Assembly (NCBI GenBank): GCA_905178155.1
Contig: CAJINV010000026.1
Span: forward strand, 64,973-109,665
DNA length: 44,693 nucleotides
Reading direction: 5' to 3'
Source of the DNA: Amoebophrya sp. A120
Taxonomy: Eukaryota; Protista; Dinoflagellata
The position numbers and the translations under genes are program-made. Of this stretch, positions 1 to 44,693 are shown one piece after another (the first letter of the stretch is position 1; each line of letters begins with the position of its first letter). Below the pieces are notes generated by a model. That model had not been told where the DNA came from, searched no databases, and was given only the letters and a program-made list of their open reading frames with translations.

Positions 1-170
1 AGAATACAATTTTTGCTACGCAGAGAGGACATTTGTCATGCGGACTAGGCATCAAGATGCCCTCAGAAAATCTGTGATGCTAGGGCATGCATCACAGACA
101 TCATGGGTCATGGAAAACCTGCATGACAAGTCTCAGAATCTTCCAGACCCAGACACTTTTACATTTGATA
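1..170. mobile_element. TIR introner, family A (truncated by window edge)
   Basis: Ends CTTCCAGACCCAGACACTTTTACATTTGATA. Confidence 0.85.
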
Positions 171-27100: not shown

Positions 27101-30100
27101 CCATAAGCTCCGCACACCGATTCAGATAAGGCACTGTATCCAACTGCAACTGTCTCTGCCGCCACAGCACCAAGCAGGCAACTTTCCCGGTGAACGCGGA
27201 CGTTAACTGCTCGTTGGTCACCGTGTTCTTCAAGATTTGCCTTTTCAAGTACTGAAACGCCGCAATCCGCTGTTTGTCGTTCGCACTGATAAGCTCGTAC
27301 AAAATGAAGGGTAAAAACAGCTCCAGTTCCGATAACGCCGTCTTCTCGGTGTTCAAGTGATCGAACTGGTTGATCGCCTGCTTCAAAAAGTCGTCGCTCG
27401 TCATCTTGTATGCATTGCAAAAGAAGTTGTATCTTACTTGTACTACTAATCGCAGGCATGCATTACAAATCTTCTTCTTCAGCTAAACCTGCAATACAAC
27501 AAATTCCATTTCTCATAATTCTGAGGAAATTTGTCATGCGATTTCGACTAATACACGCTACTTTATTTGCAATCCATATCTTCCCCTGCTCCGCTGGATT
27601 TCTCTCCGCGTTGGCCTGGGCGACGTTTTGGAGCAAGACGTTGCCCTGCTGCGCCAGCCCGTTTCCAGTGCTAGAGCTGTTGTTCGTAATGTCGAGCTAT
27701 CAAATGCAAAAATGTCTGGGTCTGGAAGATTTTATAGACTTGTCATGCGGGGTTTGCATGACCCATGATGTCTGTGATGCACGTCCTAGCATCAAAGGTT
27801 TTTTGAGGGATTGTTCTTGATGCCTATTCCGCATGACAAATGCCCTCTCCGCGTAGCAAAAATTAGAATCTATTTGCTGCTCATGCAACACAAATTTTTT
27901 AGACATCCAAATGCAGCATCACAAGTTGCATTCTTCCAGACCCAGACAACATTTTTGCATTTGATACGAACCCCCCAAGCGGGATTTCGACGGGCTCGCC
28001 CGATACTAATTGCTGCATCAGCTGCGTCGAAGAGCACGCGGCCGCCATGACTTGCTGCACGATGACAGACTGCTTCGCAACTTTCAGTTGCTCTTCGGTT
28101 GTTGTCGCAAGAAAAAAGTGTTTCATTGTTTTGCAAGTTTTGCATCACAGGTTTGTTCTACATGACAACGAAAATTTCCCAGGCAAGGCTGCTAAGGGAA
28201 TAGAACGCGGTTAAAAATATACTATCTGGCATGTGTAGCAAGACAAACCCTTCTGAGATACTGATACATTTTGTGCATTACAAGTTTACACCAATGAAAC
28301 AATTTTTTTCTGCGATAGTTGTCTCTCGATTTTTGATCTGCACTGGCAACAGCGTCGAGCCGGAGTCCATGATGTAATCGCTCGTGTTAAACAGCATGCA
28401 GGTAAGGCTGGACTGTTGGCTGTCGTATTCCTCGCCCCCGTTATCTGAGTTCTGGGAAGATAAAGTGCTATTCATCAGAGACGAATCTTGCTCGTTACTC
28501 ATCATCTGCAATTGTTGCATGCCTAGCAGCTGCTCCTTCATCTTCTTTTTCTTCTCGTTCGCATTCGTAATCGGCCCGTTCATTCCTATTTTCGTCTCGT
28601 TTTCCCCGAACGGAGCGTCGAGGAAGAGGCCCGCGCGGACCAGGTTCAAATCGTCCACCACGGACAAAAGTTCGGTCATGGATAAATTCATGCTCATGCA
28701 CAGCTTGCACAGCTGGTTCATCGCGTACACACCCGGTAAAATCGCGTCCCTCTCGTCGTTGCTCGTCTTCGTCCCGAAATCGGCGTTGCACAAATCGTGC
28801 TCCTCGTCTAAGTGGGTGAAAATGATTTCCAGGTACCGGCAGAGCGCCCGCTGGAGTAATCCGTCCCTCGGTGCGGAAATCGCCAAGGTTCGAAGCATAT
28901 GCATCGCAAAACTATCGCACTCGTACTAATCGCATTTATGCATTACAAATCTCTTTGTCAAGTGAAATCCGCATTACAAAACGCATTTCTAATGCTGAGG
29001 AAATTTGTCATGCGATTTTTACTAGTACGATATTTTCACTTTTGCAGTGCATAAAGTAGCTGCTTGGATAGATTCAACGTCCCGAAGAGGAATTCCATTT
29101 CTGTCAAGTACCGTCTAGAACTTTTGAGCTGGTTCGAGGAGTTATTCAGTGTGCCGAGTTGAAAGCTGTCCGTGTTCTGGAAGTCCGCGCTATCTTCCAG
29201 AACCGACATGAATATCAAAATGAAAAAAGACCCCACCCTATACTCGATAAGACAATTTGTGTTGCTGGATTTGTGTTGTACACAAATTTTGTATTGCAGC
29301 AAGAGCTGCTTGTTGGCATATTCTAAGCCCGTTCGGGTACTACGCATCCGGCTAGCAGCTGCGCATGAGAAACAGCTCTGACATAGGGGAAAACGCATGA
29401 CAGACTGGCTGCGCAATGTGTTACATGGGTGCCGTTTGCATTGTACGCAAGACAAAGCTGATTTGTGCTCACAAATCAGCATCACAAGTTTCCTCTTCGA
29501 TATGGGGAGGAAGGATTTTTCCTCACAATATTGAACACGTCGTTGTCAACATCGTCAACCTGGACCATGTATGGATTGCAAATATGTCTGGGTCTGGAAA
29601 CTTGTGATGCTGAGTGGTGAGTAGTGAATTCTCTGGAATGCACAGCCAAGCATGAGAAATATTTGCGCGGCTTAGTGTTGCGCTTTCCGCATGACAAACT
29701 GCGTTTTGCATGACAAGCAAAAGGGTGTCTTCTTGGACACGCATGACAGACTCCTCAGTCATTCCAAACAAACATGGCAAACCTTGCATCCTTCCAGACC
29801 CAGACATATTTGCAGTGCATACCATGGATTCCGTCACCACCGTATCCGGAATGAAGCAGTACCGGCTCGACTGCATATGGCCTGGTCAGCAGCGGAAACA
29901 ATCTCCACGAATTGGAAGTGTGCATGTTTGTTGTACGACTCTAGCCCGATGGTTCCTAACTAAGATGCCCAGCCTACATAAAAAATTCGCCACATCGTTC
30001 CGAACTCCGTTGTCGAGGTTCCGAGCTGACCCCTGGAGGTTCCGAACTGACCCCCAAAGGTTCCGAACTCGCGTCCGAAGCTTCCGAACTCAGGTCCGGA

Positions 30101-33100
30101 AATTCCGGAGGCGAGTTGAGTGGTTCCGAACTCCATTCCGATGGTTCCTAACTAAGATATCCAGCCTGCGAACAAAAATTCGGCACATGGTTCCGAACTC
30201 ACTTATCGAGGTTCCTAACTGGCCCAGGAAGGTTCCTAACTGACCCCCGCAGGTTCCTAACTGGCCGTCGAAGGTTCCAAACTCGCGTTCGCGGGTTCGG
30301 ACTTCGCTGTTTGGAGTTGGGGTTTGGGTTTCGTATAGCTTACCATGGTAATAAACTAAGTTTATTACCATGGTAAGCTATACGAAACCCAACAACCACT
30401 CTGGGTGTAGTTTAACTACACCCAGAGTGGTTGTGCCACACAGGAGCTGGACACATGATCCGCCTTTTGAAACACAAATTTTTCCGGTTCACATTGTTCC
30501 AGCTGGTGAGACCTCCATACTGCATGTAATAGCTGTCTTCGTCGGTGTTTACAAAAGAAATACGGTCTCCGTCGGTTTCGAAGCAAGAATTGGTGATCCA
30601 GCCATTGTCGATCGCGATGTAGTGCGCCTGTACTTGCGCCTGCTGCTTCGCGACAGCTTCCAAGTCTACTTGCGGTGGTTGTAGAGTGTGATCTGCCGGA
30701 ACAGCCGCAGCGCCCGACGCAGCAGCAGCTCCTTGTCCTTGAGGGGCGATCTTATTCCCCAGTCCATTCTTGTACACTTTCTTGTACGGTATTTTCACCG
30801 CGAACCTGCGGCAGTTTGGGCCGAACAAAGTGTCCTTGATGTTCGTGAAAATCCCGGACTGGTAGTAGCAGTGGCAGTCGTTCCAAACCGTGCAGTCACC
30901 GAGCAGTTCGAATCTGAGCAACTGCGTTTTCCGTTCCGTCTGCCTCGCTTGAAAATCCTCGGTGCCGGTCGATTGATAGAGAGTAAGGACCCAGGGGTCC
31001 TGTTCCTCGTCCGGCTCAAAATGTTGTGTGCTGTGCTTCATTTTGTTCTGGCCCCCGGGTAGAAGCAACTCCCCTGTAGGAGAGTCGTAGTCCGTATCAT
31101 TCGTACTTTCGGATCCTGGACTGTGGTACTCTCCTGCAGCTGTACCGCCTTCCGCCGCTTCGCTGCTTTTCCACAGCGCGTTTTTCCTCGCTTTTTGGAG
31201 AACGGAAAAATATGCGCTGCAAAAGTATCGTACTCGTCGTAATGGTAATCGTGCATGACAGGTTTATCTCTCTACGCAGCTTAACAGCATTACAAAATTC
31301 ATTTTTCGTGCTGACCAAATTTGTGCTGCGATTTCTACTAACTGGCGCGATGGCGATGCTCTTGCAATGCATAAAAAATCCTTCAACGCGATCTCCCTCT
31401 TCGGTAATGGGAGGGAGGATAAGCAGGCCAGGAACGTGTTGGACTCGAGCAGGCGGTAGAGGAGCTGCGGTTCTTTCGAAGCTACTTTCGAAAACAGCAA
31501 GCTTGAATTCGTCCCAACCTCCAGCTCGTCCTCCACAACCACCATCGACCGCAACCTCTTCACGCAGCTCCGGATCAGTTCGCTGTTCGCCGTGATTTTT
31601 CCACTCGTACTAGACACGCAGATCGTGACTAAAAATTGAATCGCGGAGTCTCGAAAGCTTCGCGCGGCTCTCGTCGCGGTCGCAGGTTTCACAAACTATC
31701 CTATTTGAAAACGTCCCCACCCCATTACTATCTATTATATTCATGCGAAAAAAGAGGTCTACAGAGGGTCGAAGGGAGGTGGCCGAGAGGTCAAAAAGAG
31801 GTCAAGAGAGGTCAAAAAGAGGTCGACAGAGGTGGAGAGGTGGCGCGGGAGGTCATTCGAGGGGGTGGCCGAGAGGTGGCGCGGGTATAGCCAGCCGAAC
31901 CGTTCACCCTAAAGCCGCGCCTATGGGGGACGGAGGTGGCCGAGAGGGTCCCGAGAGGGTGCGTGAGAGGGGAACAGAGGTGCCGAGAGGTTGCGCGAAT
32001 AAGGGCGAACCTCTCGCGCACCCTCTGGGCCACCTCTCGGCCACCTCTGCAGACCTCTAACGGCGAGTATAGCCGGACTATTAGCAACACCTCTCGGGAG
32101 AGGTCAAAAAGAGGGTCTGCGAGAGGGTCAAAAAAATCCGAATCCCCCCGGCACGCGGCCGATTTTGTTGGGGCTCTTTCATGACGCAGGCCCACACCCT
32201 TTCGCGCTCCCCTCTTTCGCCACCCTCTCGCGCATCCTCTCGCGCACCCTCTCGCGCCACCCTCTCGCGCACCCTCCCGCGCCCCAGTTCTGCTTCGGCA
32301 CCTACGTCGAGGCGGCTTCTCTTCGCCCCCGAGCTTCGCTGTAGCTGCCCCCTGCGCATAGCGCCTGAAGGCGCGGGAAGCGCGCAGGAGGCGGCGCGGG
32401 TTGACATGGCGCAAACCGGCGCCAGTACTTCCTTCGACCTGTCACCCTGTGCGCAAAGCCCTGGCGTTGCGGCCCGATCCGCAAATAGTCCTGCCCCGCC
32501 AAAACAGCCGCGCGCCCCGGCGTCAGCCGGGGCATGGCTGGTAGTTGTAATGCAAATCTGCACGCTGAAAATGTTACTCATGCGGAACCTCATGAGAAGC
32601 AGCTTCTAGTCGTGTTTTGCAATTTGTCATGCTCCAATCAGCATGGTATGCTAGGTCTGTGATGCAGCTGCTGGGCTAGCTCAAACAGCACTACACTACG
32701 AATCCAGATTTGTGATGCAAAACAGCCAAAACTTGTGGATTTGTCTAGCCGATTCCCCATCTTGACTATGGTGTGGGGACATTTTTACTCAGGATACAAA
32801 CGTGAACAGCTTCTGTTGCTGATCGAACAAATCGGTCAGCTGCTTCGCGCCGTTATTTTCACCAATGAAGTCTTCCTTCGCTTCGCGGATCGTCATAAGG
32901 AGTAGACCATTCACTTCCTCAAAGTGGCTGTATTACAGTGAAAAGTGCCCCCCATCCCCAAAGTGGCAAAAATTTGTGATGCGAAATTTCCAAATGAAAA
33001 CTTTTTGTCATGCATGAAAGGAATATGAATCTTTCTGATGCAGATTCTAGCGGTGTTTGTGTTTCGCGTCGCTTGCATGACAAGCACCGCTCTTATTGGG

Positions 33101-36100
33101 ATCTTTTGCAATGCAAATTTTTGCTATTCACGATCGGAAATCTGTGATGCTGATACGATGCAAGAGGGCGCATGTTTCATTTGGAAAGGTTTGCAATACA
33201 AATGCTTTCAAGTTTAGGGGTGGGGGCATTTTTCATTGTAATAGGCTGCAGAACTGCTTCAGTATCCTCGTGAACTCTTCTGTGTGCGTGGAAACTAGAT
33301 TATTCCTCGCGATAATACTCCCGGTCGTCGCTTTCTGGACTGTATGCTGCGCCGGGACGAAGGGAAATTCATTCGCCGGGACTTTCGTGAAAAGGCATTT
33401 CTGGTACTGGGTGAGGAGGCTTGACGCTGTTGCACTTGAGCTTGTCATGCCAGATTGCAAGCACGCCATGTTGCCTCCTGCACAGTCTATCCCTGGCTCC
33501 GTTTCTTCTTCCGGTTCTTGGAATTCCAAATCGTCGTCTGCTCCAGCAACGGTGTCAGCGACAAAGTCTTCCGCAAACCTATCTTCCACATATTCCAAGC
33601 AACTCCTTCGAATAGAATGCGACTTCGTGTGCTGGTGATGCTGTGCGAAGGCTTTACTAGCGGAGGCTCGCCCTGCTGGTGTGCTACCTTTCGCAGCTGT
33701 CGCGGCACAGTGCTTTCTGCTCCCACCAGCACTTCTGACGCTTGTCCACAGAGTCGGGAACGCGGGTAAGTTTTCCATGATATCTACCGCCCTCCCCGCG
33801 GTGCCGAATTTCAACAACCGAAGTTGGATTTGTTGCAAAACGGTGGAAAATTTTTCCAACAATTGTGTCCGGTTAAACACAAACCGGAAAATTCGGTACT
33901 GCTTCTTCAACTTTTCCTCGTCTTCTTCAAATACCTCGATCGCGGAATTGCCGTCCCGAAAGTGGTTCTTGATCAACCTCGTGATCTCCGAGAAAAGCAA
34001 GTCATCCGCCACAGAAATCTCGGTTTGCTTCAGAACTTTGTAATCCGCCAAGCCATCGTCGTCGTCGTCGGACGAGGCGGTGGAGTTTTTATGCGACTTG
34101 GACTTGCTGTCCTGCTTTTGCTCAACGACAGTTGCACCTTGATCGCCGACTTGGTTCTGGTTTTCTTTGCTGCTTTTCCGCGTTGTGGAGGCTCCTGCTC
34201 CTGCGGGCTGCTTCTTCTTGATGTTCATCGTCGTCCCTCCACTAGAAGTTGCGCCGGCGAGCAAAGGGAGCTGCTGGTGGAGTGCGCCGTCTGCTGCCAT
34301 CTCCACGTGGTCTTCGCTGTCTCCCCCAGCACCTGCGTCGTCGCCGAACCCTCGGTCGAAGTACTCTTCGTCTGAGTTGTAAAAGTCAGCCGCTCCGCAA
34401 CTTCTATCGTCAAAGATATCCTCTATCCCCAGCGTCAGGTCATCGGCCTTCAACTCTTTGTGATTTTCCAAGCAGGCGGAAACGCAGTCCCAACACGCGA
34501 TTACGATGTCCGCGACGAGAGGCTTTCCGGTGGCGTCTGCCTCGTTCAGAAACGGCTTCACCACTTCGATCTTCTGTTTTAAAGAAACTGCCGGGAGGAT
34601 GGCGAGCAATTGCAACAACTCGTGAAGCAACGTCGTGAAAACCGTTAGCTGCTTGTTCGCTATGGTCGCGTAATTATCAACTGCAAAAGTATCGTACTCG
34701 TATGAATGCAAGACAAATTCCCTCAGCATGAGAAATAAAACTTGTAATGCGGATTTACCTTGAGAAAAAGATTTGCGATGCATGATTGCAATTACTACGA
34801 GTACGATACTTCTGCACAGGATAGTAATGTTCGGCGTTTGAAGATGTTCTTGTCACTCCGGTTTGATGTTGTAGCTCCATCCCGTCTCTGTGCGCGGCAC
34901 TGATCATGGGCACGAGGAAGTTCAGCAGAAACCGGTGGAAGTATCCTGTGGAAAAGTATCGCACTCGTACTTCTAATCGCAGTCATGCAAGACAAGTTTC
35001 TTGCTCAAGCTAAATCAAAATCAGCATAAGAAATTCCATTTGTCATGCTGAGCGAATTTGTATTGCAATACTACGAGTACGATACTTTATTTGCAGTGCA
35101 TAGGATTTCAGTCGGGTCGATGTGAATGTAGTGCAACGGATGAAGCGACGCGGGCAGGGGATCTCCTGCTATCAAGTGTAAAAATGTCTGGGTCTGGAAG
35201 AGCACAACTTTGTCATGCACATTTTCCATGATCCGTGACGTCTGTGATGTATGCCATAGTATCACAGATTTCTTGAGCGCTTATCTATGCGCATCCAGCA
35301 TGACAAATGCCCTCTCCGCGTAGCCAAATTTGAATCCTCTTGCTGGTCATGCAATACAAGTTCGTTTTAGCATCCAAATGCAGCATCACAAGTTTGGCTC
35401 TTCCAGACCCAGACATTTTTACATTTGATACCTGCCATCGTCACACGGTCTTCGACGCTTTGATGATGTTCCCCAAATAAATACGCTCCGCTGCCGGCTG
35501 CAAAATCGTTCCCCCCTGTCCTTTATGCATTGCAAAAGTGGCGTACTAGTAGTAATGGCATGGCAAATTGCCTCAGCGTGGGATGGCAAATGGAATTTGT
35601 CATGCTATTTTACCTTGGGATGGAGATTTGTCATGCATGTTTGCAATTACTACGAGCACGATACTTTTGCACAGGATATCCTTATGAGTTGTAGAATTTT
35701 GCAGATGAAAAAGAAGCTCTCCTCCGTAACCTGCTCTGACACAACATCTCGCGCAAAACGTCGCTGCCCCTCACCTTCCTGGTCTTGAACAAATTCGCGC
35801 TCGGCCAGCTTGAACGTCGCAAAACAGGAACTCACCAGAATTTTCAGCTGCCGTTCCACGGAGCAGCGAAACATATCCACGATCGCATACGGGTCGTAGG
35901 GCTTCACAGGAGGGACAGGGAGTGCAACGCCTGGCCCCAGAAATAAATGCTGATCTACTTCGTTGTGCATGATGTTGATATCAACTGGAGCCCCGATTTT
36001 GATTTTGTTCGCGAACAAGTCCTCCACATAGCCGGTATTTGCATCTGCGCTGAAGAACTGCTCCAGCCTCCGCGGGTACGTGATCGCAATCCGCATGTCT

Positions 36101-39100
36101 TCCTCGAATGTTTCCCTTTCCACGCAAATTTTCTGCTTTTCGAACAGCTTGTAGCCCGCACTCGTTTTGTCGGGGAGTAAGTTCGTTCCGGGATTTGTCG
36201 AGAACTTTGCCTTTTCCCGCAACACTTTTTCAAAGTGCGACGCGAGAAAGGGGTCGAGCTTTTCTTCGTAGAAAGTCGCGAGGGAAGGGGTCGGGATCAA
36301 AAGTCTGCTATCAAATGTAAAAATGTCTGGGTCTGGAAGAGTGCTACACTTCTCATGCATATTTTGCATGACTCAGGATGTCTGTAATGCATGATCTAGC
36401 ATCACAAATTTTGTGACGGCTTCCTGATGCCTCTACCGCATGAGAAATGCCATTTCGCCGTGGCAAAAACTGGACCCCTTTTGCTGTCCATGCAATACAG
36501 ATTTTTGTATTATCCAAATGCAGCATCACAAGCTGCATTCTTCCAGACCCAGACATTTTTGCATTTGATATCTGCTCTCGCGGTCGAGGTGGAGCGAGCC
36601 ACTACCTGTTCCAAAGCGGCTCTGGTCGTAGTCGTGGTGATATGCATTGCAAAAATATCGTACTCGTATAAATGCATTACAAATTTCCCCAGCATGAGAA
36701 ATGAAATTTGTCATGCGGATTTACCGCAAGAAAAAAATTTGTAATGCATGACTGCGATTACTACGAGTACGATACTTTTGCACAGGATAGGTGATCGTGG
36801 TCGCCGATGTGATGTTGTCCGCCAGCAAGATGATGAACCCCACCTACAGTATCATTACACCCTCCGCAGAAAATCGAAAATGCCCTCGGCAGCAGCCGGT
36901 ACAGAAAGCGTACTAACGAGAGTGCGAAGAGACCGATGTGGCCTGGCCCGAGCAGCCGCGAGTCGAGGTTGAACTGTAGAGATTTGTCGAACATTCTCAG
37001 TTTCAATGCGTCATCTCGGCTTTTATCGGCGGAGGGAAGGATAGCAGCCAACCGGTTTTCCAAACCGTGAACAGTGTTTGATGCTTGCTCGTCCCCCGTC
37101 GCTTCTAGTACAGACGCAAAAATTTCTGCCTTGTCAGACCCCGGCTCCGGCTCCTTTTTTCCTAGATTTTCTGCCGCTAGTGCAATCAGCGTTTCTTCCA
37201 CAAGTGGCCGGATATTGGTGCAGGAGGAATTCCTGCTCCCGCGATTTTTAAACGCAGCTGTCGTCGTGCGACCTGGAGTCGACGTCCTTACTGCTGCGAC
37301 TTGCGCTTGCCCCATCACGTGGAAGTTATTTTGCAGGAGAATTTTCTGCTCCCTTCTCAGCAAAAATTCCCAGTATTCCAGCGCCGCAGCAGAGAGACCC
37401 TCGTCGCAGGACAAGCTCGCTTTTAGGAGGTTTGGTAGGTTTTTTGGCAATAGAAAGATCTTCGAGTTGATCATGTGCTGGTCATCTATATCGAGTTGTG
37501 TTGCGGTATTCATCGTCATCCCTTGGTGTTGAAAACCTTTCATCTCGCGGAGAAGGTTTGCGACGCCGGATAAAGACTTTTCAACCTGCTCGCCAACATC
37601 CCCACCTCCACCGGGAATCAGCTTGTAGAAAGACTTCAGTGCGTTTCTCGTTTCAATCTTCTCATCGTGGATAATATTTACATCGAGAAACGTTTTCCAA
37701 CAGATCTGCTGGGTCAGGGAAACAACTGCGAGCGCCTCCTTTTTCTTTTGAAAGGTAATCAGCTTGTGCTGCATGTTGTCGGTTGATGCAGCCGCGCCGC
37801 CAGGACGACGAGTCGTTGTTGTTCCGAGCGTTTGCCACAGCGACCCGTCACAGGCCGCGTACAACCCGTGCGAAGGCGTGGCGCAATTGGTCAGAAAATC
37901 GTCCAAGCTGTGGAGAATGGTGGATAAATTCAGCTTATCCCCAACGTGGATCCTTTTCTTCTTCACCTGAGCGAGTCTGTGGGTGATCAGCTTTTTCAGG
38001 ATCTTGAACAGGCTGAAAAGCTGGTGCTCGGGCGGCCGGGAGGCGGACAGGTGAGGACCACTGGACGTCAAGAGCTGGCTTGATGTTCTTGTTTCTCTGT
38101 CCACGCTAGACTTATCCTGGTCGTGCTGCCCAACGACCGCAGAAGTACTAGCAGGTCCTACGGAGTCACTAAAATCCAACATCTTGCAGCGCTGAATCTC
38201 CGCAATTTTGCACAGGTATCCCATCTGGTCGTTCAAGAATTCATCTAAAAACTCACTTTCAGAAAAACCGTTGTTCGCCCCGGTATTGTCTTTGTCGTCA
38301 GGGAAAACGAAGAAAACCGCGTTCACCGCGTGAAACAGCGCTTCAATCAGCGAGAATGTCATGCCTTCTGTCGCGGGACCTCTTGGGTAGAGGTGGAGCT
38401 TTTTAGTACCGCCAGCATCAAGAACTCCCGTAGTACCTCTGTGGAGGCATTTCCTGTGCTGCTTCTGCACCTTCTTCTTTTCCTTCCCGAAAAGAGCCAG
38501 AACGCAGTGCAATACTTCAAGCAAAATGTCCGTGGCTGAAGTTTTTCGCATCACCGATTTGTTCTTCTTGGCGTAGAGGTTCTCGTCGATTCGGATCAGT
38601 TCGGAGTTACTTTGAGCATTGGTGCCAGGCTTTCGAACCAAATCAGCAACCACTGCAGTGTTGGTCGAAGTGCCGGGGAAGAGACTCGCGGAGAAAGAAG
38701 AACTGGCCTGCTCGGATTTCTTGGTCTTCTCCCGATGAACTTGTTCCGCATTTGAAAAATCCAGACCAACGCGCTCGATCTGCAATTTTCCCCCAAACGG
38801 GAGTTTATCCGATTTGAATTCGCGGCAGATCATGGTGATTAGGTCGGAGATGCGGATCATGGCGTTTTCCAAATTCGTCTTGAAAAGCGAGATCTTCTGG
38901 TCGACTTTACCCTGCCCGCCCTGCCCCCCGCCCTTCCGGCTGGTCGGGAGGTTCGCGAAGAGGTGGGTGAAGCTGATGGCTTTGCCCAGGCCTCGTTTTT
39001 CCAGAAGCTCCTGCTGCTTCGCAGTATTGGATGCACTAGACGAATTGTTGCTGGACGCACTACTAGTACTCGCGATCAGGCTGTTGACGATAAACGGCTC

Positions 39101-42070
39101 TTGGAGAAGCTTGGCAGATCGGGTGAAGAAGAGCATGGATTCGAGACCACTAGAACTACCACAACCGTGGCCGTTGGAGTCTTCGTCGGTGAAGATATTG
39201 TCGTCTTTGGCTTCTCTATTCATCTTTACGTCGTTGAACTTTGTGAACTCCAGCTCGGAGTTTATGCCGAAGTCGTGGTCACCAGCAAAATTCCGATACC
39301 CTGAGTAAAAACGTCCCCACGCCAAAGTTGTAATGCAGATTTGCAAAGACAGCAAGACTTGTAATGCGCATCCCCATGAGAGGCATTTCCAATCGGGTTT
39401 TGGAATTTGTGATGCTGTGAACAGGATGAGCAGACGAATCTGTGATGCGGCTGCACTTGCTAGCCTGCACTAAACTGCAGAGTGCAACTTGTCATGCGTG
39501 ACTCACAAAACTCCTAGGTTTGTGTTGCAAAATCCCCATCCTGACTCTGGTGTGGGTACGTTTTTACTCAGGATATCCGACCGGATTTCTTCTTGTTCCC
39601 CTGAAAAATATGCTCGGGGACTTTCAGTTTTGGTGGGTGCTTTTTCTGCAGCAAGTCAATGTTACCGTGGCGTACGTAAAGAATTCGCAACTTGGAAATC
39701 GCCTCGACGCAGTCTATGCATTGCAAATATGTCTGGGTCTGGAAGCGCGGAAGTTTGTCATGCTCGGCTAGCATGACTCTCAAATGTGTCTTGCACGTTA
39801 CTTACCCCAAAGCTCCAACTTTCTGTCATGCAAAAAGGCAGCTTGTCATGCTGAATAGACAACACGTAGCAAATCATAAACTTGTCATGCTGAGCCGTCA
39901 CTTGTGGCATCCTCATGATTCGCCACTCAGCATCACAAATCTCCAGACTCAGACATTTTTGCAATCCATACAGTCCTCCAGCAGGCAATACACCAGATTC
40001 GACGTGTTGAAGCTGGTCGCCGTGCTGGAATCGTCCGCCAAATTGTGTTCGATATGAACTGCAAAAGTATCGAACTCGTAGTAATTGCAGTCATGCATTT
40101 ACAAATCTTTTCTCTTGAAGTAGATCCGCATTACAAATCTTATTTCTCACGCTGAAGAAATTTGTAATGCATTTATACGAATACGATGCTTTTGCAGTTC
40201 ATATTCGATGTGAAACAACAAATTTACCAGGACCTGCACGACCAATTCCGGTCGGTACTGCTGGGAAACCGGTAGAACTGCTTCCGCGATGTGGGCCGAA
40301 GCGTTGGCAATGGGCGGCTGCAGTATCTCGTGCCGCAAGTAGAAATTGTCTTCCTCGGCGGGGAGACTCTGCTGGTAGAACAACCTGACGGAAATGTGGA
40401 AGCGTTGCGTTTTTGATTTTTTCGATTAGAAGAGTAATTCGCGACTTAGTTCTGAAAAGAAACTTATGGTTAGAACCCGACCTGACTCTGATGCTTTTTA
40501 TATCAACATGCTTTTTTCAAAAAATGTTTATTCCATAAAATGCTTTTCATCTTATTTCAACGGTCGAGCTATATTTTTCTAATTTTCACTTTCCGCTCGG
40601 GGAAGGTGAATAAAATGATTCAAAAAATGCTTCAATGCATGAGGGCTGCAGCAGATGCAGGCTTGAACGCTGTAGCCGTCACGCACAGATACAATATCGT
40701 GCGAATCATACCCTCGCGATTTGAGATTTTAAAAATCAAAGACCATACCGTGGAACGCTACATACCCTCGCGATTCCACTTTTCGTATTTTTCGCGATGA
40801 AAATTTTTAAGTACTATATAAGAAAACTTCATACCTTCCATACCCCGGCAGCGCTTTCAAAATGCAGTAGGCCATGAAGGCGGGGAGGTTCAAGCTCGTG
40901 AATACTTCTTTGCCCTGTTCGAGAAAGTCTTTCATCAAACACAAGCACTTCGCCGCATTATGGTGTTTGACTTCCACTTCCAGCTGTGTTGCGGTACTTG
41001 CAGCGTTATCGCATGTCCTGTTTTCCTCCTGTGCAGCTCCAAAACCCGCACCACCTCCCACGACCGGTTGTTGCGGCGGCGCCTTGTAGAAGGGTGCGTA
41101 TTCAAAGGCGTAGCGGAAGAGAACGTTTTTCACGATGATTTTTTTCAAACTGCTATCCTGAGCAAAAACGTCCCACCCCAGAGTCAGGATGGGGATTTTG
41201 CAACACAAAGCTAGGAGTTTTGGGAGTCACGCATGACAAATTGCGCTCCGCAGTGTAGTGCAGGTTAGCAAGTGCAGCCGCGTCACAGATTCATCTGCTC
41301 ATCCTGTTCACAGCATCACAAATTCCAATACACGATTGGAAATGGCTCTCATGCGGATGCGCATTACAAGTCTCCCTGTCTTTGCAAATCTGCATTACAA
41401 CTCTGGTGTGGGGACTTTTTTACTCAGGATAGCTGCTTCGAATCGCACTCGTGGAATTCAGATTGTTATCCGCATTTATCGCGTTGTAGTCCACGAGATC
41501 CCCCCCGTTCATCTTCTCAATGGCGGACACCAATTTCTCCGCGTCCAGGTTCAACGGGAGCTTGTAGCAAGAGTCTGGAATCGACTCGTCAAACAGCTCC
41601 GTGATCTGCGGCCAGTTTTCCGGAACCTTCCACCCCGTCGTGCTACAGGTGGGCGGCTTCGCGATGCCCGGAGCGGTTGCGCTGGCGATATAGCCAGTTG
41701 TAGCACCTCCTGGTGGTGGTGGCTTCATCGTGTTCTTAACATTGTTCGCAGCTGCTGTAGGTGCTGACAATGAAGATGTTGCGCCAAGAAGCTGTGGGGT
41801 CGACGAGCCCTGCTCGGTAGTCTGGAGATTTTTAGTTTTAGCACCACCACGACCCGCACTGCTGCTGCTACTACTAGTACCGCTAGTACCACTACCCGCA
41901 GCCTGCTTCGACGCCTTCCTTTTCGATCCAGATGGTTGCGCCGGTTGAGCTTTTTTTCCTGTTGCTTCTTTAGAAACATTGCGACTGGACTTTCCGGAAG
42001 CCGTTCCGCCGCGAGCGCCTGGCGGGGGGTCGGGCCCGTCGCTCCGCCCGCTCCCGGAGTTGGAAGTCAT
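1..42070 (-). CDS. ATR: Giant multi-exon ATR/Mec1/Rad3-like PIKK kinase gene (HEAT region and part of FAT domain; 3' end and kinase domain lie beyond position 1)
   Basis: ATR-like motifs in the expected order: LCASVFGLVGAMD, YHYAAQQILKVL, FSEDVKKQLLPFLTSSY, IFIGCYPVIKTHNLALARYLAPFLLRIIL, LVQAAERIGAHARALLYLE, AAEAAWRLSSWDTL, FQVQIGKCLL..FYDLL..SYERVYPTLIKLHALADL (compare human ATR as recalled: EAAWKLSQWDLV, WSVRLGQLLL..FYDSL..SYQRGYEYIVRLHMLCELE). Exons in transcript order, each including flanking 5-bp repeat copies: 41432-42070, 40835-41153, 40204-40384, 39971-40052, 39576-39714, 36790-39296, 36571-36640, 35679-36308, 35431-35523, 35103-35169, 34824-34941, 33244-34674, 32797-32930, 31374-31696, 30513-31210, 29822-29881, 29531-29569, 29054-29212, 28318-28897, 27967-28102, 27579-27697, 27083-27408, 26709-26758, 26411-26446, 25631-26128, 25204-25415, 24925-25007, 24157-24684, 23813-23859, 23365-23474, 23061-23131, 22301-22806, 18838-19402, 18439-18622, 17718-17830, 17394-17441, 16508-17154, ~16148-16233, 13820-14008, 13536-13600, 13108-13153, 12828-12898, 12325-12562, ~11278-12030, 8665-8917, 8336-8399, 8020-8119, 6888-7739, 6599-6652, 6267-6322, 5813-5999, 5197-5548, 3497-3534, 2881-3164, 2548-2729, 2131-2295, 1818-1866, 1116-1555, 674-897, 171-390. 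Confidence 0.85.
391..673. mobile_element. TIR introner, family B
   Basis: TATCATTTGTAAAAACGTCCCCAC...; direct repeat (DR) GCTTC/GCTTC. Confidence 0.9.
898..1115. mobile_element. TIR introner, family C
   Basis: TATGCAGAAAAGAAACTG...CAGTGTTTTTCTTGGATA; DR TAAGA/TCAAA; frame restored. Confidence 0.85.
1116..1555 (-). CDS. ATR: FAT-domain exon (FQVQIGKCLL...SYERVYPTLIKLHALADL)
   Basis: Core of ORF 1093..1644; strongest ATR-like motif in the window. Confidence 0.9.
1556..1817. mobile_element. TIR introner, family A
   Basis: TGTCTGGGTCTGGA TIRs; DR AGTTG/GGTTC; frame restored. Confidence 0.88.
1867..2130. mobile_element. TIR introner, family A
   Basis: DR TTCTG/TTCTG. Confidence 0.9.
2296..2547. 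mobile_element. TIR introner, family A
   Basis: DR GGATT/GGATC; interior similar to 22807-23060 and 39715-39970. Confidence 0.9.
2730..2880. mobile_element. TIR introner, family D
   Basis: TATGCATTGCAAAAGCATCG...CGATACTTTTGCACAGGATA; DR CGAGG/CAAGA. Confidence 0.88.
3165..3496. mobile_element. TIR introner, family E
   Basis: TATCAAAATGAAAAATCCCCCCTCCC...; DR CTGTG/CTGTG; frame restored. Confidence 0.9.
3535..5196 (-). other. Canonical GT-AG intron containing the 376-bp repeat
   Basis: CTAG|GTATTC...TATCAG|GTCC; in-frame join ...LSRSAGNSAQ. Confidence 0.75.
3735..4958. repeat. Tandem repeat, 376-bp unit, about 3.2 copies
   Basis: Equivalent ORF starts at 3945, 4321 and 4697. Confidence 0.92.
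5549..5812. mobile_element. TIR introner, family C-like, with degenerate DR
   Basis: TATCGTGCGAAAAAAG...TTTCTTTGCGATA; DR CGCGA/TTGCA (1 of 5) but 5-bp removal restores frame. Confidence 0.75.
6000..6266. mobile_element. TIR introner, family A
   Basis: DR GTGTG/GTGTG. Confidence 0.9.
6323..6598. mobile_element. TIR introner, family B
   Basis: DR AAGTC/AAGTC. Confidence 0.9.
6653..6887. mobile_element. TIR introner, family F
   Basis: TATGGGGCTCTCAAACGTTACATTTTCAACTGTTACATGA with inverted counterpart; DR AGGAC/AGGAC. Confidence 0.9.
6888..7739 (-). CDS. ATR: Q/G/P/N-rich low-complexity exon inserted within the FAT domain
   Basis: Core of ORF 6678..7808; in-frame joins translated through 6599-6652, 6267-6322, 5813-5999 and 5197-5548. 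Confidence 0.8.
7740..8019. mobile_element. TIR introner, family E
   Basis: DR CTGGC/ATGGC. Confidence 0.88.
8120..8335. mobile_element. TIR introner, family C-like
   Basis: TATCAAGAGAAAAAAG...CTTTTTTCCTGTGATA; DR GGAGA/GGAGA. Confidence 0.88.
8400..8664. mobile_element. TIR introner, family A (right end GTA)
   Basis: DR GGATG/GGATG. Confidence 0.9.
8665..8917 (-). CDS. ATR: FAT-domain exon (AAEAAWRLSSWDTL)
   Basis: Frame of ORF 8579..8806, open back to CAATAG| at 8918. Confidence 0.85.
9084..9378. repeat. 120-bp repeat built of CGACAAAAACC subunits, ending in a perfect 27-bp-arm hairpin
   Basis: Units near 9084, 9204 and 9324; arms 9323-9349 and 9352-9378. Confidence 0.88.
9381..10890. 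repeat. Tandem repeat, 128-bp unit, about 12 copies
   Basis: AAAATCGCCGGGCTCCGA at 9391, 9519, 9647...; the unit holds the palindrome CGATTCTCAGCGCTGAGAATCG. Confidence 0.95.
11278..12030 (-). CDS. ATR: FAT-domain exon (ELQEKWQDALHLY...GVVRCLLASRHY)
   Basis: ORF 11230..12030; donor position approximate. Confidence 0.8.
12031..12324. mobile_element. TIR introner, family F
   Basis: DR GTCAA/GTCAA. Confidence 0.88.
12563..12827. mobile_element. TIR introner, family A
   Basis: DR GCCGG/GCCGC. Confidence 0.9.
12899..13107. mobile_element. TIR introner, family C
   Basis: DR CTTCT/CTTCT. Confidence 0.9.
13154..13535. mobile_element. TIR introner, family A, with nested 110-bp insertion
   Basis: DR AGGCC/AGGCC; insert 13199-13308 flanked by CTTCTTG repeats. 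Confidence 0.9.
13601..13819. mobile_element. TIR introner, family G (left end TGT)
   Basis: TGTGAGAGTGCAC...GTGCACTCTCATA; DR CGCCC/CGCCC. Confidence 0.88.
13820..14008 (-). CDS. ATR: Exon at the start of the FAT domain (LVQAAERIGAHARALLYLE)
   Basis: Hand translation, frame not shown in the ORF track; resembles the ATR LAxASFRSKAYTRAVMHFE segment. Confidence 0.85.
14009..16147 (-). other. Probable canonical intron containing the 84-bp satellite
   Basis: Acceptor TAACAAG|GTTG follows an in-frame stop; donor uncertain; extra exons in 15050-16150 not excluded. Confidence 0.45.
14069..15041. repeat. Tandem repeat, 84-bp unit, about 11.5 copies
   Basis: ACTTCCTGAAGCGC at 14081, 14165, 14249...15005; 13-bp stem TTTTCCAGATCGG/CCGATCTGGAAAA. 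Confidence 0.95.
16234..16507. mobile_element. TIR introner, family F
   Basis: TATGACCTGCTCA...TGAGCAAGGCATA; DR TTCGC/TTCGC. Confidence 0.88.
16508..17154 (-). CDS. ATR: Exon with IFIGCYPVIKTHNLALARYLAPFLLRIIL
   Basis: Frame of ORF 16432..17004 is open to element 17155-17393. Confidence 0.85.
17155..17393. mobile_element. TIR introner, divergent C-like
   Basis: Weak TIR; DR CCGAA/CCGAA; frame restored (KFGNDKS). Confidence 0.8.
17442..17717. mobile_element. TIR introner, family A
   Basis: DR CGGAG/CGGAG. Confidence 0.9.
17831..18438. mobile_element. TIR introner, family D, with nested ~450-bp insertion
   Basis: DR AATCG/AATCG; family D sequence interrupted at about 17876-18322. Confidence 0.88.
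18623..18837. mobile_element. TIR introner, divergent C-like
   Basis: TATGCAAGGATAATTTC...GAAATTTTCTCTTGGATA; DR GTCGC/GCCGT; frame restored. Confidence 0.78.
18838..19402 (-). CDS. ATR: Exon with YHYAAQQILKVL (ATR AYALQELL-like)
   Basis: Core of ORF 18774..19493; acceptor ACATAG|CGG inferred. Confidence 0.78.
19403..22300 (-). other. Canonical GT-AG intron containing the 149-bp satellite
   Basis: GCTA|GTGCCA...ACATAG|CGG; phases match; alternative sites possible. Confidence 0.55.
19632..22180. repeat. Tandem repeat, 149-bp unit, about 17 near-identical copies
   Basis: Identical ORFs recur every 149 bp (19877, 20026, 20175...). Confidence 0.97.
22301..22806 (-). CDS. ATR: Exon with LCASVFGLVGAMD (ATR CLGELGAIDP-like)
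   Basis: Frame of ORF 22227..22583 is open back to element 22807-23060. Confidence 0.8.
22807..23060. mobile_element. TIR introner, family A
   Basis: DR TCGTG/TCGTG. Confidence 0.9.
23132..23364. mobile_element. TIR introner, family A (left end CAT)
   Basis: DR TTTCG/TTTCG. Confidence 0.88.
23475..23812. mobile_element. TIR introner, family B
   Basis: DR GCGGG/GCGGG. Confidence 0.9.
23860..24156. mobile_element. TIR introner, family B (diverged)
   Basis: DR CGTAA/CGTAA. Confidence 0.88.
24157..24684 (-). CDS. ATR: Exon of the ATR-like gene
   Basis: Core of ORF 24149..24790; I translated in-frame joins through 23813-23859, 23365-23474, 23061-23131 and 22301-22806. Confidence 0.82.
24685..24924. 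mobile_element. TIR introner, family G
   Basis: TATGAGAGTGCA...TGCACTTTCATA; DR CTTTG/CTTCA; frame restored. Confidence 0.85.
25008..25203. mobile_element. TIR introner, family D-like, with internal ~39-bp tandem duplication
   Basis: DR CGGCT/CGGCT; ATGAAAGCCGCTTGCACAAGAAGACATACAGTTTGTCAT twice. Confidence 0.88.
25416..25630. mobile_element. TIR introner, family C
   Basis: DR TTGCA/TTGCA; close relative of 898-1115. Confidence 0.9.
25631..26128 (-). CDS. ATR: Exon of the ATR-like gene (LLEENFLYILDIFE, UME-region-like)
   Basis: Core of ORF 25466..26182; domain label is inference. Confidence 0.78.
26129..26410. mobile_element. TIR introner, family B
   Basis: DR AAAAG/AAAAG. Confidence 0.9.
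26447..26708. mobile_element. TIR introner, family A
   Basis: DR GGTCG/GGTCG. Confidence 0.9.
26759..27082. mobile_element. TIR introner, family E
   Basis: DR TGGCC/TGGCC; opposite orientation to 3165-3496. Confidence 0.9.
27083..27408 (-). CDS. ATR: Exon of the ATR-like gene (helical, FLPFILYELI...AAFQYL)
   Basis: Core of ORF 26967..27404. Confidence 0.8.
27409..27578. mobile_element. TIR introner, family D
   Basis: DR TCTTG/TCTTC. Confidence 0.86.
27698..27966. mobile_element. TIR introner, family A
   Basis: DR CGAGC/CGAAC. Confidence 0.9.
28103..28317. mobile_element. TIR introner, family C (left end TGT)
   Basis: DR GTTGT/GTTGT. Confidence 0.87.
28318..28897 (-). CDS. ATR: Exon of the ATR-like gene
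   Basis: Core of ORF 28278..28904. Confidence 0.8.
28898..29053. mobile_element. TIR introner, family D
   Basis: DR AAGCA/AAGTA. Confidence 0.87.
29213..29530. mobile_element. TIR introner, family E
   Basis: DR ATGAA/TTGAA. Confidence 0.88.
29570..29821. mobile_element. TIR introner, family A
   Basis: DR CCATG/CCATG. Confidence 0.9.
29946..30305. repeat. Degenerate 21-bp GGTTCC(G/T)AACT repeat organised as a 192-bp duplication
   Basis: CCGATGGTTCCTAACTAAGAT near 29946 and 30138. Confidence 0.82.
30324..30434. repeat. Two abutting perfect palindromes (34-bp and 21-bp arms)
   Basis: 30324-30357/30359-30392 and 30392-30412/30414-30434. Confidence 0.92.
30513..31210 (-). CDS. ATR: Exon of the ATR-like gene
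   Basis: In frame with ORF 31264..31692 after removing element 31211-31373 plus 5 bp; includes ORF 30412..31068; donor GGAG|GTCTC inferred from phase. Confidence 0.7.
31211..31373. mobile_element. TIR introner, family D
   Basis: DR AAAAA/AAAAA; frame restored. Confidence 0.88.
31697..32796. mobile_element. TIR introner, family B, with nested ~820-bp GC-rich insertion
   Basis: TATCCTATTTGAAAACGTCCCCAC...GTGGGGACATTTTTACTCAGGATA; DR CAAAC/CAAAC. Confidence 0.88.
32931..33243. mobile_element. TIR introner, family H (single copy here)
   Basis: TATTACAGTGAAAAGTGCCCCC...GGGGGCATTTTTCATTGTAATA; DR GGCTG/GGCTG. Confidence 0.9.
33244..34674 (-). CDS. ATR: Large exon of the ATR-like gene
   Basis: Core of ORF 33233..34783 between TIR elements. 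Confidence 0.85.
34675..34823. mobile_element. TIR introner, family D
   Basis: DR GTAAT/GTAAT. Confidence 0.9.
34942..35102. mobile_element. TIR introner, family D (opposite orientation to neighbour)
   Basis: DR GGAAG/GGATT; frame restored. Confidence 0.87.
35170..35430. mobile_element. TIR introner, family A
   Basis: DR CCTGC/CCTGC. Confidence 0.9.
35524..35678. mobile_element. TIR introner, family D
   Basis: DR TCCTT/TCCTT. Confidence 0.9.
35679..36308 (-). CDS. ATR: Exon of the ATR-like gene
   Basis: Core of ORF 35650..36369 between TIR elements. Confidence 0.8.
36309..36570. mobile_element. TIR introner, family A
   Basis: DR TCTGC/TCTGC. Confidence 0.9.
36641..36789. mobile_element. 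TIR introner, family D
   Basis: DR GGTGA/GGTGA. Confidence 0.9.
36790..39296 (-). CDS. ATR: Largest exon (about 835 codons) of the ATR-like gene
   Basis: Core of ORF 36761..39355, bounded by two TIR elements. Confidence 0.85.
39297..39575. mobile_element. TIR introner, family B (left end TAC)
   Basis: DR TCCGA/TCCGA; reverse-complement relative of 41154-41431. Confidence 0.9.
39715..39970. mobile_element. TIR introner, family A
   Basis: DR CAGTC/CAGTC. Confidence 0.9.
40053..40203. mobile_element. TIR introner, family D
   Basis: TATGAACTGCAAAAG...CTTTTGCAGTTCATA; DR TTCGA/TTCGA. Confidence 0.9.
40385..40834 (-). other. Canonical GT-AG intron, AT-rich
   Basis: GGAAG|GTATGA...CGTCAG|GTTG; phases match. 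Confidence 0.8.
41154..41431. mobile_element. TIR introner, family B
   Basis: DR ACTGC/GCTGC. Confidence 0.9.
41432..42070 (-). CDS. ATR: First coding exon (S/G/K-rich N-terminus MTSNSGSG...)
   Basis: ORF 41420..42070; ends at element 41154-41431. Confidence 0.75.
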
Positions 42071-43222
42071 GATGGGAAAAAATAAAAAATGTCGCTAGGA
42101 TATTATGGTGTATTTGTGAATGTTAAATACGATAGGTGATACGTTCAAGATGAAGGATCACATGATCGTCGTATAGTCTAGTACTTGACGCGACAGATGA
42201 AACGACTCCAGCGCCTTTTTTCGCAAGCAGGGATACATACCTGCGGCACCATCGTTCTCATTTCATCGAAGTGGTCACAAGTTAAGAATAGTCGCACGGG
42301 GGTAAAAATCACATCTTTGTTCTACTTCCGTTGTTATGTAGTCCATGTCGGTCGCTATGGTGAAATTCTGCCTTGCTTTTGAAGAAATCGTGGTGGAATC
42401 GAGGTAGTCACGACATCTAGTGCAGCTTCCGGCTGAATATCGTGGCAGCACTTCTATACAGCTGCAGAAAAAAAAAGATTAAAGTGGTTGTGCATGTACG
42501 AAAGGAAGCTGCAACAAGATCTTCTCTGGCTTGCGCGTACAGATGAAAATGCGCCTTTTCTCAACAGGGAGGCGAAAGCAAAAACTGTAACTGAGAGACC
42601 ACAAGCTTTTGGTACAGCTGCCCATCGAATAAAGATTCTATCGCGCAAAGAGATGCTGAATCTGCTTAGCTACTTGAGTGGCATCTTCAGCTACGCATCT
42701 TCGGACCTTTCATCTTTTCAGCACTGTGAACTACTGCGAGGTAGTACTTACTACTTCCTTGTCCCTTCTTCCTCCACATCGTCATCAACACAAAAACTTC
42801 GATCCTTCATGCCACATCAATCAATAGACGACAAACCACGGGGAACGTCGGAAGCAATGTAGTTTTAGGCTGTATCTGCCTTCAGTTTTTGCAGCACACC
42901 TCATCTTCAACTATAGTGCGCCGTCAAGATCAGCATCCACTTCGTATCACCTGTGATAGGTCCACAATCGCATTGACGTTCCAAGAAATGTGAACAAAAA
43001 ATTCCAGAACACATGTTGCTACTCGCAGGCACTACCGCTTCACGGTTGTCGGGGTGTCGCGCTTGTGGACTCCGTTCCTCCTCGCTTGCGGAGTCCAAAG
43101 ACCAGAAAACTTTTGTTAAAATAAAACAAAAAAGCTCCACTGCGGACAGCTTTTGCGGAAAATCTGGCGGCAAGAGAAACCGAAGTTAGCATCTTTCCCC
43201 CGACCTGTATCCCGTTTCCCGT

Positions 43223-43969: not shown

Positions 43970-44693
43970 TGGTGACGCGCAAGACTTTTGGCTTCAGAAA
44001 TTATCCTGCAAACCCAGAAAGCGTCTTTTTGTGCAAGATTGATCATAGCCTCCAGGATTGCAAAGAAAAAGAAACACTTTTGCGAAAAAAATTGCATCCC
44101 GAGCCGAAAACCCCAAAACCTCAGAAGCCAGATTCCCGGGGTGATTGTTGGCGCGCAAGACTTCTGGCTTCAGAAACTCTCCTGCAAAGCCAGAAAACAC
44201 GTCTTTGAGAAAGATTGACCATAGCCTCCAGGATTGAAAAGAAAAAACACCACTTTTGCGAGAAAATTGCAACCCCAACCGAAAGCCCACAGAAACTCAA
44301 AAGCAAGACTCCCGGGGTGATTATTGGCGCGCAAGACTTTTGGCTTCAGAAATTCTCCTGTGAAGCCAGAAAGCCCCTTTTTGGGGAAGATTGATCATAG
44401 CCTCCAGGATCAAAAAGAAAAAGCGCCACTTTTGCGAAAAAATTGGACCCCGAACCGAAAACCCCAAAACCTCAGAAACCAGGTTCCCGGGGTGATTCGT
44501 GACGCGCAAGACTTTTGGCTTCAGAAATTATTCTGCAAACCCAGAAAGCGTCTCTTTGGGCAAGATTGATCATAGCCTCCAGGATTGAAAAGAAAAAACA
44601 GCACTTTTGCGATAAAATTGCACCTCGAGCCGAATACCCCAAAACCCCAGAAGCCAGATTCCCGGGGTGATTGTTGGCCAGCAAGACTTTTGG
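43970..44693. repeat. Tandem repeat, 175-176-bp unit, at least 4 copies, runs off the window
   Basis: AAGACTT(T/C)TGG at 43981, 44157, 44333, 44508, 44683. Confidence 0.92.

Follow-up and report, generated by a model that had tools for sequence, protein, structure and literature searches.

Two copies of one element with inverted ends lie in opposite directions within a single inferred gene of Amoebophrya sp. A120, raising the question of how an insert can be removed irrespective of its orientation and where the information for its removal resides. We addressed this question in a window of 44,693 nucleotides (contig CAJINV010000026.1, positions 64,973 to 109,665), which contains 54 catalogued inserts (391..41431) totaling about 14.9 kb, or 33% of its length. 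These inserts are published introner elements of Amoebophrya A120 (Farhat 2021). Non-canonical introns with these repeats have been reported in A120 with RNA-seq support and with no U1 (PMC7789003).

Inverted pairs and the reading frames that contain them

Global alignments revealed that the four pairs proposed in the initial annotation are reverse-complement relatives, with identities above those of same-strand and shuffled interiors (30 bp trimmed off each end). The focal pair (family B) comprises elements at 39297..39575 (279 bp; TAC and ATA at its inverted ends; fully matching target duplication of 5 bp at 39292-39296 and 39576-39580) and 41154..41431 (278 bp; duplication at 41149-41153 and 41432-41436 matching at 4/5 positions). 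Reverse-complement identity of this pair was 92.1% over the whole length and 92.7% in the interior, versus 51.3% for same-strand interiors. The corresponding values were 76.2%, 73.2% and 53.5% for family A (12563..12827 and 36309..36570), 75.2%, 68.3% and 49.5% for family D (34675..34823 and 34942..35102), and 69.3%, 64.0% and 54.5% for family E (3165..3496 and 26759..27082). Shuffled interiors gave means of 45-46% and maxima of 48.7-52.4% (100 shuffles each). The TA(T/C)...ATA ends fit the coordinates of all eight elements, and TAT and ATA were both present in 49 of the 54 window inserts, whose target duplications matched at 5/5 positions in 39 cases, 4/5 in 8 and 3/5 in 7.

Taking out all 30 inserts located between 22200 and 42300, each with 5 bp, together with one assumed canonical GT-AG intron, generated a putative minus-strand coding region of 3641 codons from stop to stop (22230..42094). 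The assumed intron (40385..40834, minus strand) is the best candidate donor/acceptor pair and would join the exon bearing the 41154 insert to the rest of the frame; alternative pairs gave 3632-3639 codons. Retention of any single insert disrupted the frame, which fell to 3244 codons with 39297 retained and to 3446 codons with 41154 retained. Both focal copies are therefore located in the same frame, as the initial annotation had proposed for the transcript, although the transcript itself is deduced from that frame. Five families are represented in both directions within it: the family D elements are 118 bp apart (duplication of the second, 3/5), the family A element at 36309 is opposed by 26447-26708, and the family E element at 26759 is opposed by 29213-29530. 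For pairs A and E as first proposed, one member (12563 and 3165, respectively) lies outside the long frame, on the same coding strand.

A second minus-strand frame of 542 codons (162..3584), which contains a FAT domain and spans 7 inserts, matched A120 model CAD7973960.1 at 389/390 residues across 6 of them; the family E element at 3165 is taken out in the public A120 gene model. The A25 homologue is ATR-like, and the 22230..42094 frame probably represents the 5' portion of a gene for an ATR-like kinase. This frame had no Pfam family above cut-off, its longest exon had no homologue, and neither the FAT region nor the frames around 12563 and 3165 could be joined to it across large repeat-filled gaps. 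Besides the 22200-42300 stretch, four stretches were open across their inserts (7/7, 6/6, 5/5 and 5/5, after one end was corrected). Removal of the inserts is indicated by the open frames, by homology at the protein level and by the public gene model. One raw-read RNA run yielded 11 reads, with depth only in insert-bearing bins; no joint was present among the matches listed for this run or for a run guessed to be RNA.

Register of removal and symmetry of the ends

The long frame demands removal of the insert length plus 2, 5 or 8 bp at 30/30 sites. In RPB1 (sequences L062-L064), the four junctions aligned without gaps only at +5, in 117, 117, 117 and 116 of 117 homologues, and CAD7973960.1 drops its 6 window inserts at +5. 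Wherever homology bore on it, the register was exactly the element plus 5 bp. For insert 1556, the first base of the upstream duplication remains in the public model. For insert 898, a leucine found in both the model and the A25 homologue rules out a cut behind the second or third base. Scoring of codons where the duplication is imperfect yielded no fixed register. In a second assembly, the duplication was exactly 5 bp and perfect in 217 of the 318 detected copies, a duplication of 6 or 7 bp was never found, and one of 8 bp was found once.

Orientation was analyzed for 253 oriented copies from the window and the second assembly. None of the six families showed an orientation bias (35:36, 21:21, 15:17, 16:13 for focal family B, 6:11 and 7:7; pooled p=0.93). 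The initial proposal of orientation-independent removal is supported. The proposal that the information must lie in symmetric ends was likewise borne out, since no transcript-relative polar feature passed testing in the 253 copies, a position-4 skew being the one weak signal. The 5' and 3' ends were alike at 26/26 positions (smallest p, 0.06), with 110 versus 109 departures from consensus, and the large families have TAT-N7-AAA in common at their inverted ends. The alternative location initially offered, symmetric internal motifs, did not hold, because the focal family motif is one-stranded (96 versus 0 matches in 27 copies) and yet the orientation of that family is balanced.

Recognition of the ends

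The inserts are best explained as non-autonomous DNA-transposon (MITE-like) copies that integrate into exons in both directions. We consider it likely that they are excised from pre-mRNA by machinery that recognizes nothing but the mirror-image ends and makes its cuts a fixed distance away. The two ends may pair into a stem, or an identical motif may be bound at each of them. A cut in each duplication copy would leave a single copy's worth; the catalyst may be a spliceosome remodelled to work without U1, or else a protein endonuclease acting with a ligase.

End pairing predicted on the transcribed strand averaged 0.79 and exceeded 0.5 in 95% of the 150 copies that were folded. Own arms matched better than shuffled partners in 4/6 families (p 0.0005-0.02), possibly through shared descent, and arm covariation was absent in 2/6. 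The initial annotation expected mismatches to favor G-U over A-C for an RNA stem and to lack strand bias for DNA-level recognition. Bias was lacking (182:196, p=0.50; 54 versus 50 at conserved positions). This result is no proof of recognition at the DNA level, since the long stems fold equally well on both strands. Since the transcribed strand also had no folding advantage (76/150), RNA stem strength leaves no trace. Decay of the ends outside coding sequence gave p=0.08, with only 3 non-coding copies.

It is possible, if rather unlikely, that the ends are instead read in duplex DNA. A domesticated transposase or another repeat-binding protein, for example, would either mark the sites at which co-transcriptional splicing cuts or cause the polymerase to jump between the target duplications. 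The lack of strand differences in the type of mismatch, in the deviations of the arms, in folding and in orientation would fit, as would a repeated internal motif of 9-10 bases common to unrelated families (13.8 per kb versus 0.13 in exon flanks), its one-strandedness in family B being expected of a duplex-DNA site. However, the same symmetry is expected if transposition shaped the ends and the stems lie well above any folding threshold. A homology-dependent jump would poorly tolerate the 3/5 duplications, which still restore the frame (7/54). No A120 transposase was identified in Farhat 2021, though TIR elements with integrase-like frames are described in the available portion of a later paper (PMC12130899).

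An ordinary U2 spliceosome of relaxed specificity, finding polar signals in the inverted repeat or the duplication, appears improbable. The polarity of spliceosomal introns, invoked initially, was overstated as evidence against the spliceosome because an inverted repeat offers the same 5' and 3' signals either way. Candidate polar signals are a U-rich tract and a branch adenosine. Each end has an A-run, so that a U-run stands close to the 3' end whichever way a copy lies; GT-AG introns occur in the same genes, and nearly all spliceosome proteins plus U2, U4, U5 and U6 are reported in A120 (PMC7789003). Polarella glacialis and Aureococcus have spliceosomal introners that function in both orientations, as described in the accessible text of bioRxiv 10.1101/2020.10.14.339549; according to that text, the Polarella classes depend on a G or AG within the duplication, and their orientation is biased. 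In contrast, the duplications of the 253 copies favored no particular base at any position, and no preference for targets was evident. GT-AG boundaries were possible in 12/253 copies and G(T/C/A)-AG in 24/253, no more than in antisense controls (12 and 29, respectively).

Programmed DNA excision at the expressing stage, as for the internal eliminated sequences of ciliates, which are fellow alveolates, is very unlikely. A DNA reaction would be consistent with removal in either orientation and with the exact loss of one of the two duplication copies, but A120 is not known to have a separate germline nucleus. Contigs from run X1, interpreted as DNA, are identical to the window across complete inserts (23787-25074 and 30363-31737). 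They also enter the focal inserts for 33 and 48 bases with no break at the duplication, and no excision joint was present among the 15 matches listed. It is scarcely credible that the inserts stay in dead genes and that the published junctions arose when reverse transcriptase jumped from one direct repeat to the other over a hairpin, an artefact that exactly this anatomy favors (PMC4176328, in the part available), since the 3641-codon frame is open across 30 inserts and RPB1 carries its four inserts in conserved stretches of intact coding sequence.

Relationship to other introns

Complete orientation symmetry of such introns was not found in print. The fixed-distance cut proposed for Amoebophrya resembles the CAG-CTG spacer rule of Euglena, where a ruler has been demonstrated experimentally, as stated in the available text of PMC12501133. 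The missing GT/AG and the missing orientation bias set the Amoebophrya inserts apart from the introners of Polarella, for which the preprint text at hand gives normal splice sites, and of Aureococcus.

Inverted pairs among the inserts of the window

The family B elements at 39297-39575 and 41154-41431 are inverted copies with 92.1% identity over 279 bases in the self-comparison. Global alignments of whole elements, and of elements with ends trimmed by 30 bases, established the inverted homology that the initial annotation had described for this pair and for those of families A (12563-12827 and 36309-36570), D (34675-34823 and 34942-35102), and E (3165-3496 and 26759-27082). The reverse-complement relationship was confirmed for all four trimmed pairs (92.7, 73.2, 68.3, and 64.0% identity); same-strand identity was only 49.5 to 54.5%, and shuffled interiors did not exceed 52.4%.

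The window contains 54 such inserts of 149 to 1100 bp, which account for one third of the sequence and fall into seven families of 2 to 10 copies each plus 12 singletons. Both TAT and ATA ends were present in 49 of the 54, and the flanking 5-bp duplication was perfect for 39, conserved at four of five bases for 8, and at three of five for 7. The small families 6653, 12031, and 13601 (numbered by start coordinate) kept TAT and not the full AAA. Short length, terminal inverted repeats, target duplication, and dispersed copies are traits of MITEs, all present here, and approximately 47 to 49 contigs of a run read as DNA (X1) had unlike flanks at several insert ends. Copies 13601, 28103, and 39297 end in TGT or TAC in place of TAT, and we still infer their removal. 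TGT ends combined with 5-bp duplications bring integrase-type transposases to mind. Inserts 17831-18438, 31697-32796, and 13154-13535, as well as one at 4014-4985 of merged loci L062/L064 of a second assembly, carry 100 to 800 extra internal bases; because their removal still restored the frame, interior length and content seem to be free. The 644-bp insert 29876-30519 contains two near-perfect palindromes (30324-30392 and 30392-30434) and a two-copy repeat.

Scanning of the second assembly, which may differ in strain, with a 21-base end motif identified at least 143 loci, approximately 80 of them with long flanks. Before overlaps were merged, single copies had as many as 134 long matches in 408 kb of the loci listed. 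Merging of the loci listed to 376 kb led to the detection of 318 copies, including 217 with a perfect 5-bp duplication, and the 271 copies with no more than two mismatches were kept. A codon model called the coding strand for 199 of these and left 72 uncalled. Calls of neighbors agreed in 112 of 114 cases among the loci listed, and a control on 24 inserts of the window that lay outside the training frame gave 23 minus-strand calls and 1 uncalled insert. The 199 copies and the 54 window inserts form the oriented set of 253 copies, one of which has an end one base off. Selection by an exact end motif favors well-preserved copies and is not expected to favor an orientation. In the oriented set, end positions 1 to 3 were at least 97% conserved, partly by selection, and positions 11 to 13 were conserved at approximately 87 to 95%.

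Reading frame, gene identity, and removal length

The minus-strand frame stayed open upon removal of inserts with 2, 5, or 8 additional bases, and no other number between 0 and 8 had this effect. The resulting frame (22230-42094) comprises 3641 codons and spans 30 of the 30 inserts in 22200-42300, including both family B copies. Retention of any single insert broke it. Within this frame, both directions are represented in each of families A, B, C, D, and E. One putative GT-AG intron (40385-40834) is assumed, and this link is provisional, since other donor and acceptor pairs give almost the same frame length. Four other stretches were likewise open after removal of 7/7, 6/6, 5/5, and 5/5 inserts.

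A Pfam search with 12 exons returned one family above the cut-off, FAT, in exon 1117-1554. This exon matches CAD7973960.1 of Amoebophrya sp. A120 with 100% identity, and over six inserts that model agrees with the product spliced in silico in 389 of 390 residues. ATR is the closest among solved structures to the A25 homologue of this protein. The same gene probably includes the long frame upstream; attempts to join the frame across six large gaps of the window did not close them. The longest exon (36791-39295) gave no match in homologue searches, which leaves the gene part with the family B pair lacking outside protein support. An Rfam search over the window gave no match. The coding stretches in 162-42094, all of them minus-strand, may together make up a single very large ATR-like gene, for which the sole public A120 model found is the 390-residue partial. 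Tandem arrays occupy 19634-22188 (period of ~149 bases), 14069-15046 (~84), 9381-10920 (~128), 3737-4986 (~376), and 43970-44693 (~176), and the first four sit in gaps separating coding stretches. These gaps may be large introner-bounded introns, since at least two (~8919-11327 and ~19379-22319) have TAT/TGT...ATA-like ends.

The removal length was examined in RPB1 (loci L062 to L064 of the second assembly), which has four exonic inserts. Comparison with 117 homologues of at least 1300 residues, among 120 retrieved, gave gap-free alignments at the junctions only upon removal of the element plus 5 bp (all 117 at three of the junctions, 116 at the fourth). RPB1 fixes the removal length and not the orientation, because its three family-assigned inserts all have one label for orientation, and the fourth reads as the adjacent insert does. 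At insert 1556, the public model retains base 1 of the upstream duplication copy; at insert 898, a cut after base 2 or 3 is ruled out by a leucine. At imperfect duplications, codon scoring to map the cut revealed no clear register (32 non-synonymous and 22 synonymous cases). For insert 391, the A25 homologue scored slightly higher with +2 than with +5 (579 versus 573) in an alignment that is gappy at this position. RNA over 22400-42300 (11 reads in run X5, low and patchy cover in run X8) was too thin for junctions, and the 15 joint rows listed for this interval, ahead of 2120 others, come from run X1. Support for removal of the inserts is indirect and comes from the reading frame, from the homology of RPB1, and from the public model.

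Symmetry of the inserts and mode of removal

Tabulation against the coding strand bore out the occurrence of the same element in both directions, with no bias in the six larger families of the oriented set (35:36, 21:21, 15:17, 16:13, 6:11, and 7:7; pooled P = 0.93; window and loci listed). The 5' end and the reverse-complemented 3' end differed at none of 26 positions, and departures from the consensus numbered 110 and 109 at the two ends. Among these copies, the duplication showed no base preference, and purines were favored neither within it nor at the next exon base. Predicted terminal pairing of the ends averaged 0.79 (n = 150), and the transcribed strand had no folding advantage, being the more stable in 76 of the 150 copies folded.

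The sole hint of polarity, a weak one, is at end position 4, where C-C exceeded G-G on the transcribed strand (52 versus 28; 62 versus 41 in 289 copies of the window and loci listed, P = 0.048). As a polarity signal this skew fails against the number of tests run; one family end gave a P value of 0.04. Family-like copies also lie within apparent GT-AG introns at ~1060-1200 of locus L041 and at 5530-5769 of merged L062/L064. The TAT/ATA ends of the L041 copy have apparently been lost, which hints at decay of ends in places that do not require removal; the comparison of end decay outside coding sequence set 58 copies against only 3, with 92 examined.

A 9- to 10-base internal motif, GCATnACAA, occurs in all families in several copies per element, at 13.8 per kb in elements versus 0.13 in exon flanks (~100-fold; window and loci listed). 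The initial annotation had considered symmetric internal motifs as a source of the removal information. This part had to be abandoned: the motif is excluded as an obligatory RNA signal specific to one strand, because in family B it is confined to one strand (96:0) and because 42 of 247 copies lack it on the transcribed strand (window and loci listed). It is possibly a binding site for the mobilizing enzyme.

The reading that we favor, and hold to be rather likely, is that a machine acting on pre-mRNA would remove the inserts by reading their inverted ends and cutting at fixed distances in both copies of the duplication, comparable to the spacer rule of Euglena (PMC12501133). Recognition of the ends on duplex DNA, which we regard as unlikely, would fit the lack of strand bias in arm mismatches. 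An excess of G-U over A-C on the transcribed strand had been suggested as the mark of an RNA stem, and none appeared, with 182 G-T and 196 A-C mismatched arm positions (54 and 50 at conserved positions; window and loci listed). The pre-mRNA machine is compatible with this result too.

Removal by a relaxed form of the ordinary spliceosome is less probable still. The initial annotation had argued against it from the polarity of spliceosomal introns. Insertion in both directions does not by itself exclude the spliceosome, because introners of Polarella and Aureococcus are known in both orientations with normal splice sites; the argument from a signal in symmetric ends stands. A GT-AG hidden by sliding within the duplication was rejected, being possible in merely 12 of the 253 copies, as in the antisense control, and G(T/C/A)-AG was possible in 24, not above that control (window and loci listed).

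Excision from DNA is very improbable: run X1 contigs follow the window base for base across whole inserts and reach into both family B inserts, which argues against excision in this sample. That no removal occurs is hardly credible, for although published A120 junctions rest on cDNA and false junctions can arise at hairpins between direct repeats (PMC4176328), the open frame and the homology evidence count as independent support for removal.

Relation to known introns and significance

The elements themselves are already known as the introner elements of Amoebophrya A120 (Farhat et al. 2021, PMC7789003), the same organism according to CAD7973960.1. In the consulted text and supplement legends of that report, their inverted repeats consist of TAT, seven variable bases, and AAA, their length is ~240 nt, their direct repeats are 3 to 5 nt (5 bp in Fig. 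S19), and they occur alongside GT-AG introns. The window inserts share the A120 genome, TAT-N7-AAA, the 3- to 5-nt direct repeat, and the organization into families. More than 60% of A120 introns lack GT-AG, apparently without U1, and the same text calls the removal mode open. "Orientation" there refers to gene orientation only, and this text and these legends contain no transcript-relative orientation, single 5-bp rule, or tests of G-U and end symmetry. The observation holds as a genuine property of an already described system, with a symmetry that was not found in print: no report of unbiased orientation or full end symmetry was found for Amoebophrya in the text of the literature searched.

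Three other systems are similar. The introners described in bioRxiv 10.1101/2020.10.14.339549 for Polarella glacialis and Aureococcus anophagefferens are transposon-derived introns with target duplications, some inserted in both orientations, that leave the mRNA unchanged. Unlike the window inserts, they take GT/GC/GA and AG from the element or duplication, require specific duplication bases, and show orientation bias in the quoted classes. Non-conventional introns of Euglena (PMC12501133, PMC11282704) likewise lack GT-AG and have paired inverted ends (paired here by prediction), a proposed MITE-like origin, and cuts at set distances from an end motif (proposed here); circular products are reported for Euglena. 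They differ by CAG-CTG, 3-nt/5-nt spacers, and a purine at the start of the next exon, whereas the inserts of this unrelated lineage have TAT-ATA ends, a 5-bp duplication, and no base preference. MITE-derived introns of Fritillaria borealis (PMC11282704) share inverted repeats, target duplications, and non-GT-AG ends, but have preferred AG-AC/AG-AT ends, a TAC target, and an adapted U2 spliceosome, whereas the window inserts have no preferred dinucleotides.

Symmetry in orientation, ends, mismatch type, and target, together with the exact removal of 5 additional bp, narrows the mechanism to reading of the inverted ends only. Such reading yields simple test substrates and an annotation rule, and the symmetry makes the mode of A120 intron removal directly testable. 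A separate machine would be a second genome-wide alternative to spliceosomal splicing, after Euglena. Tentatively, and with more doubt than confidence, A120 may have a second removal system, independent of the spliceosome and fully strand symmetric, possibly built from a domesticated transposase, that would ignore exon sequence and take out any TAT...ATA insert with exactly one 5-bp duplication. If so, such transposons would do no harm wherever in a gene they land, and this would account for the spread of tens of thousands of them through exons.
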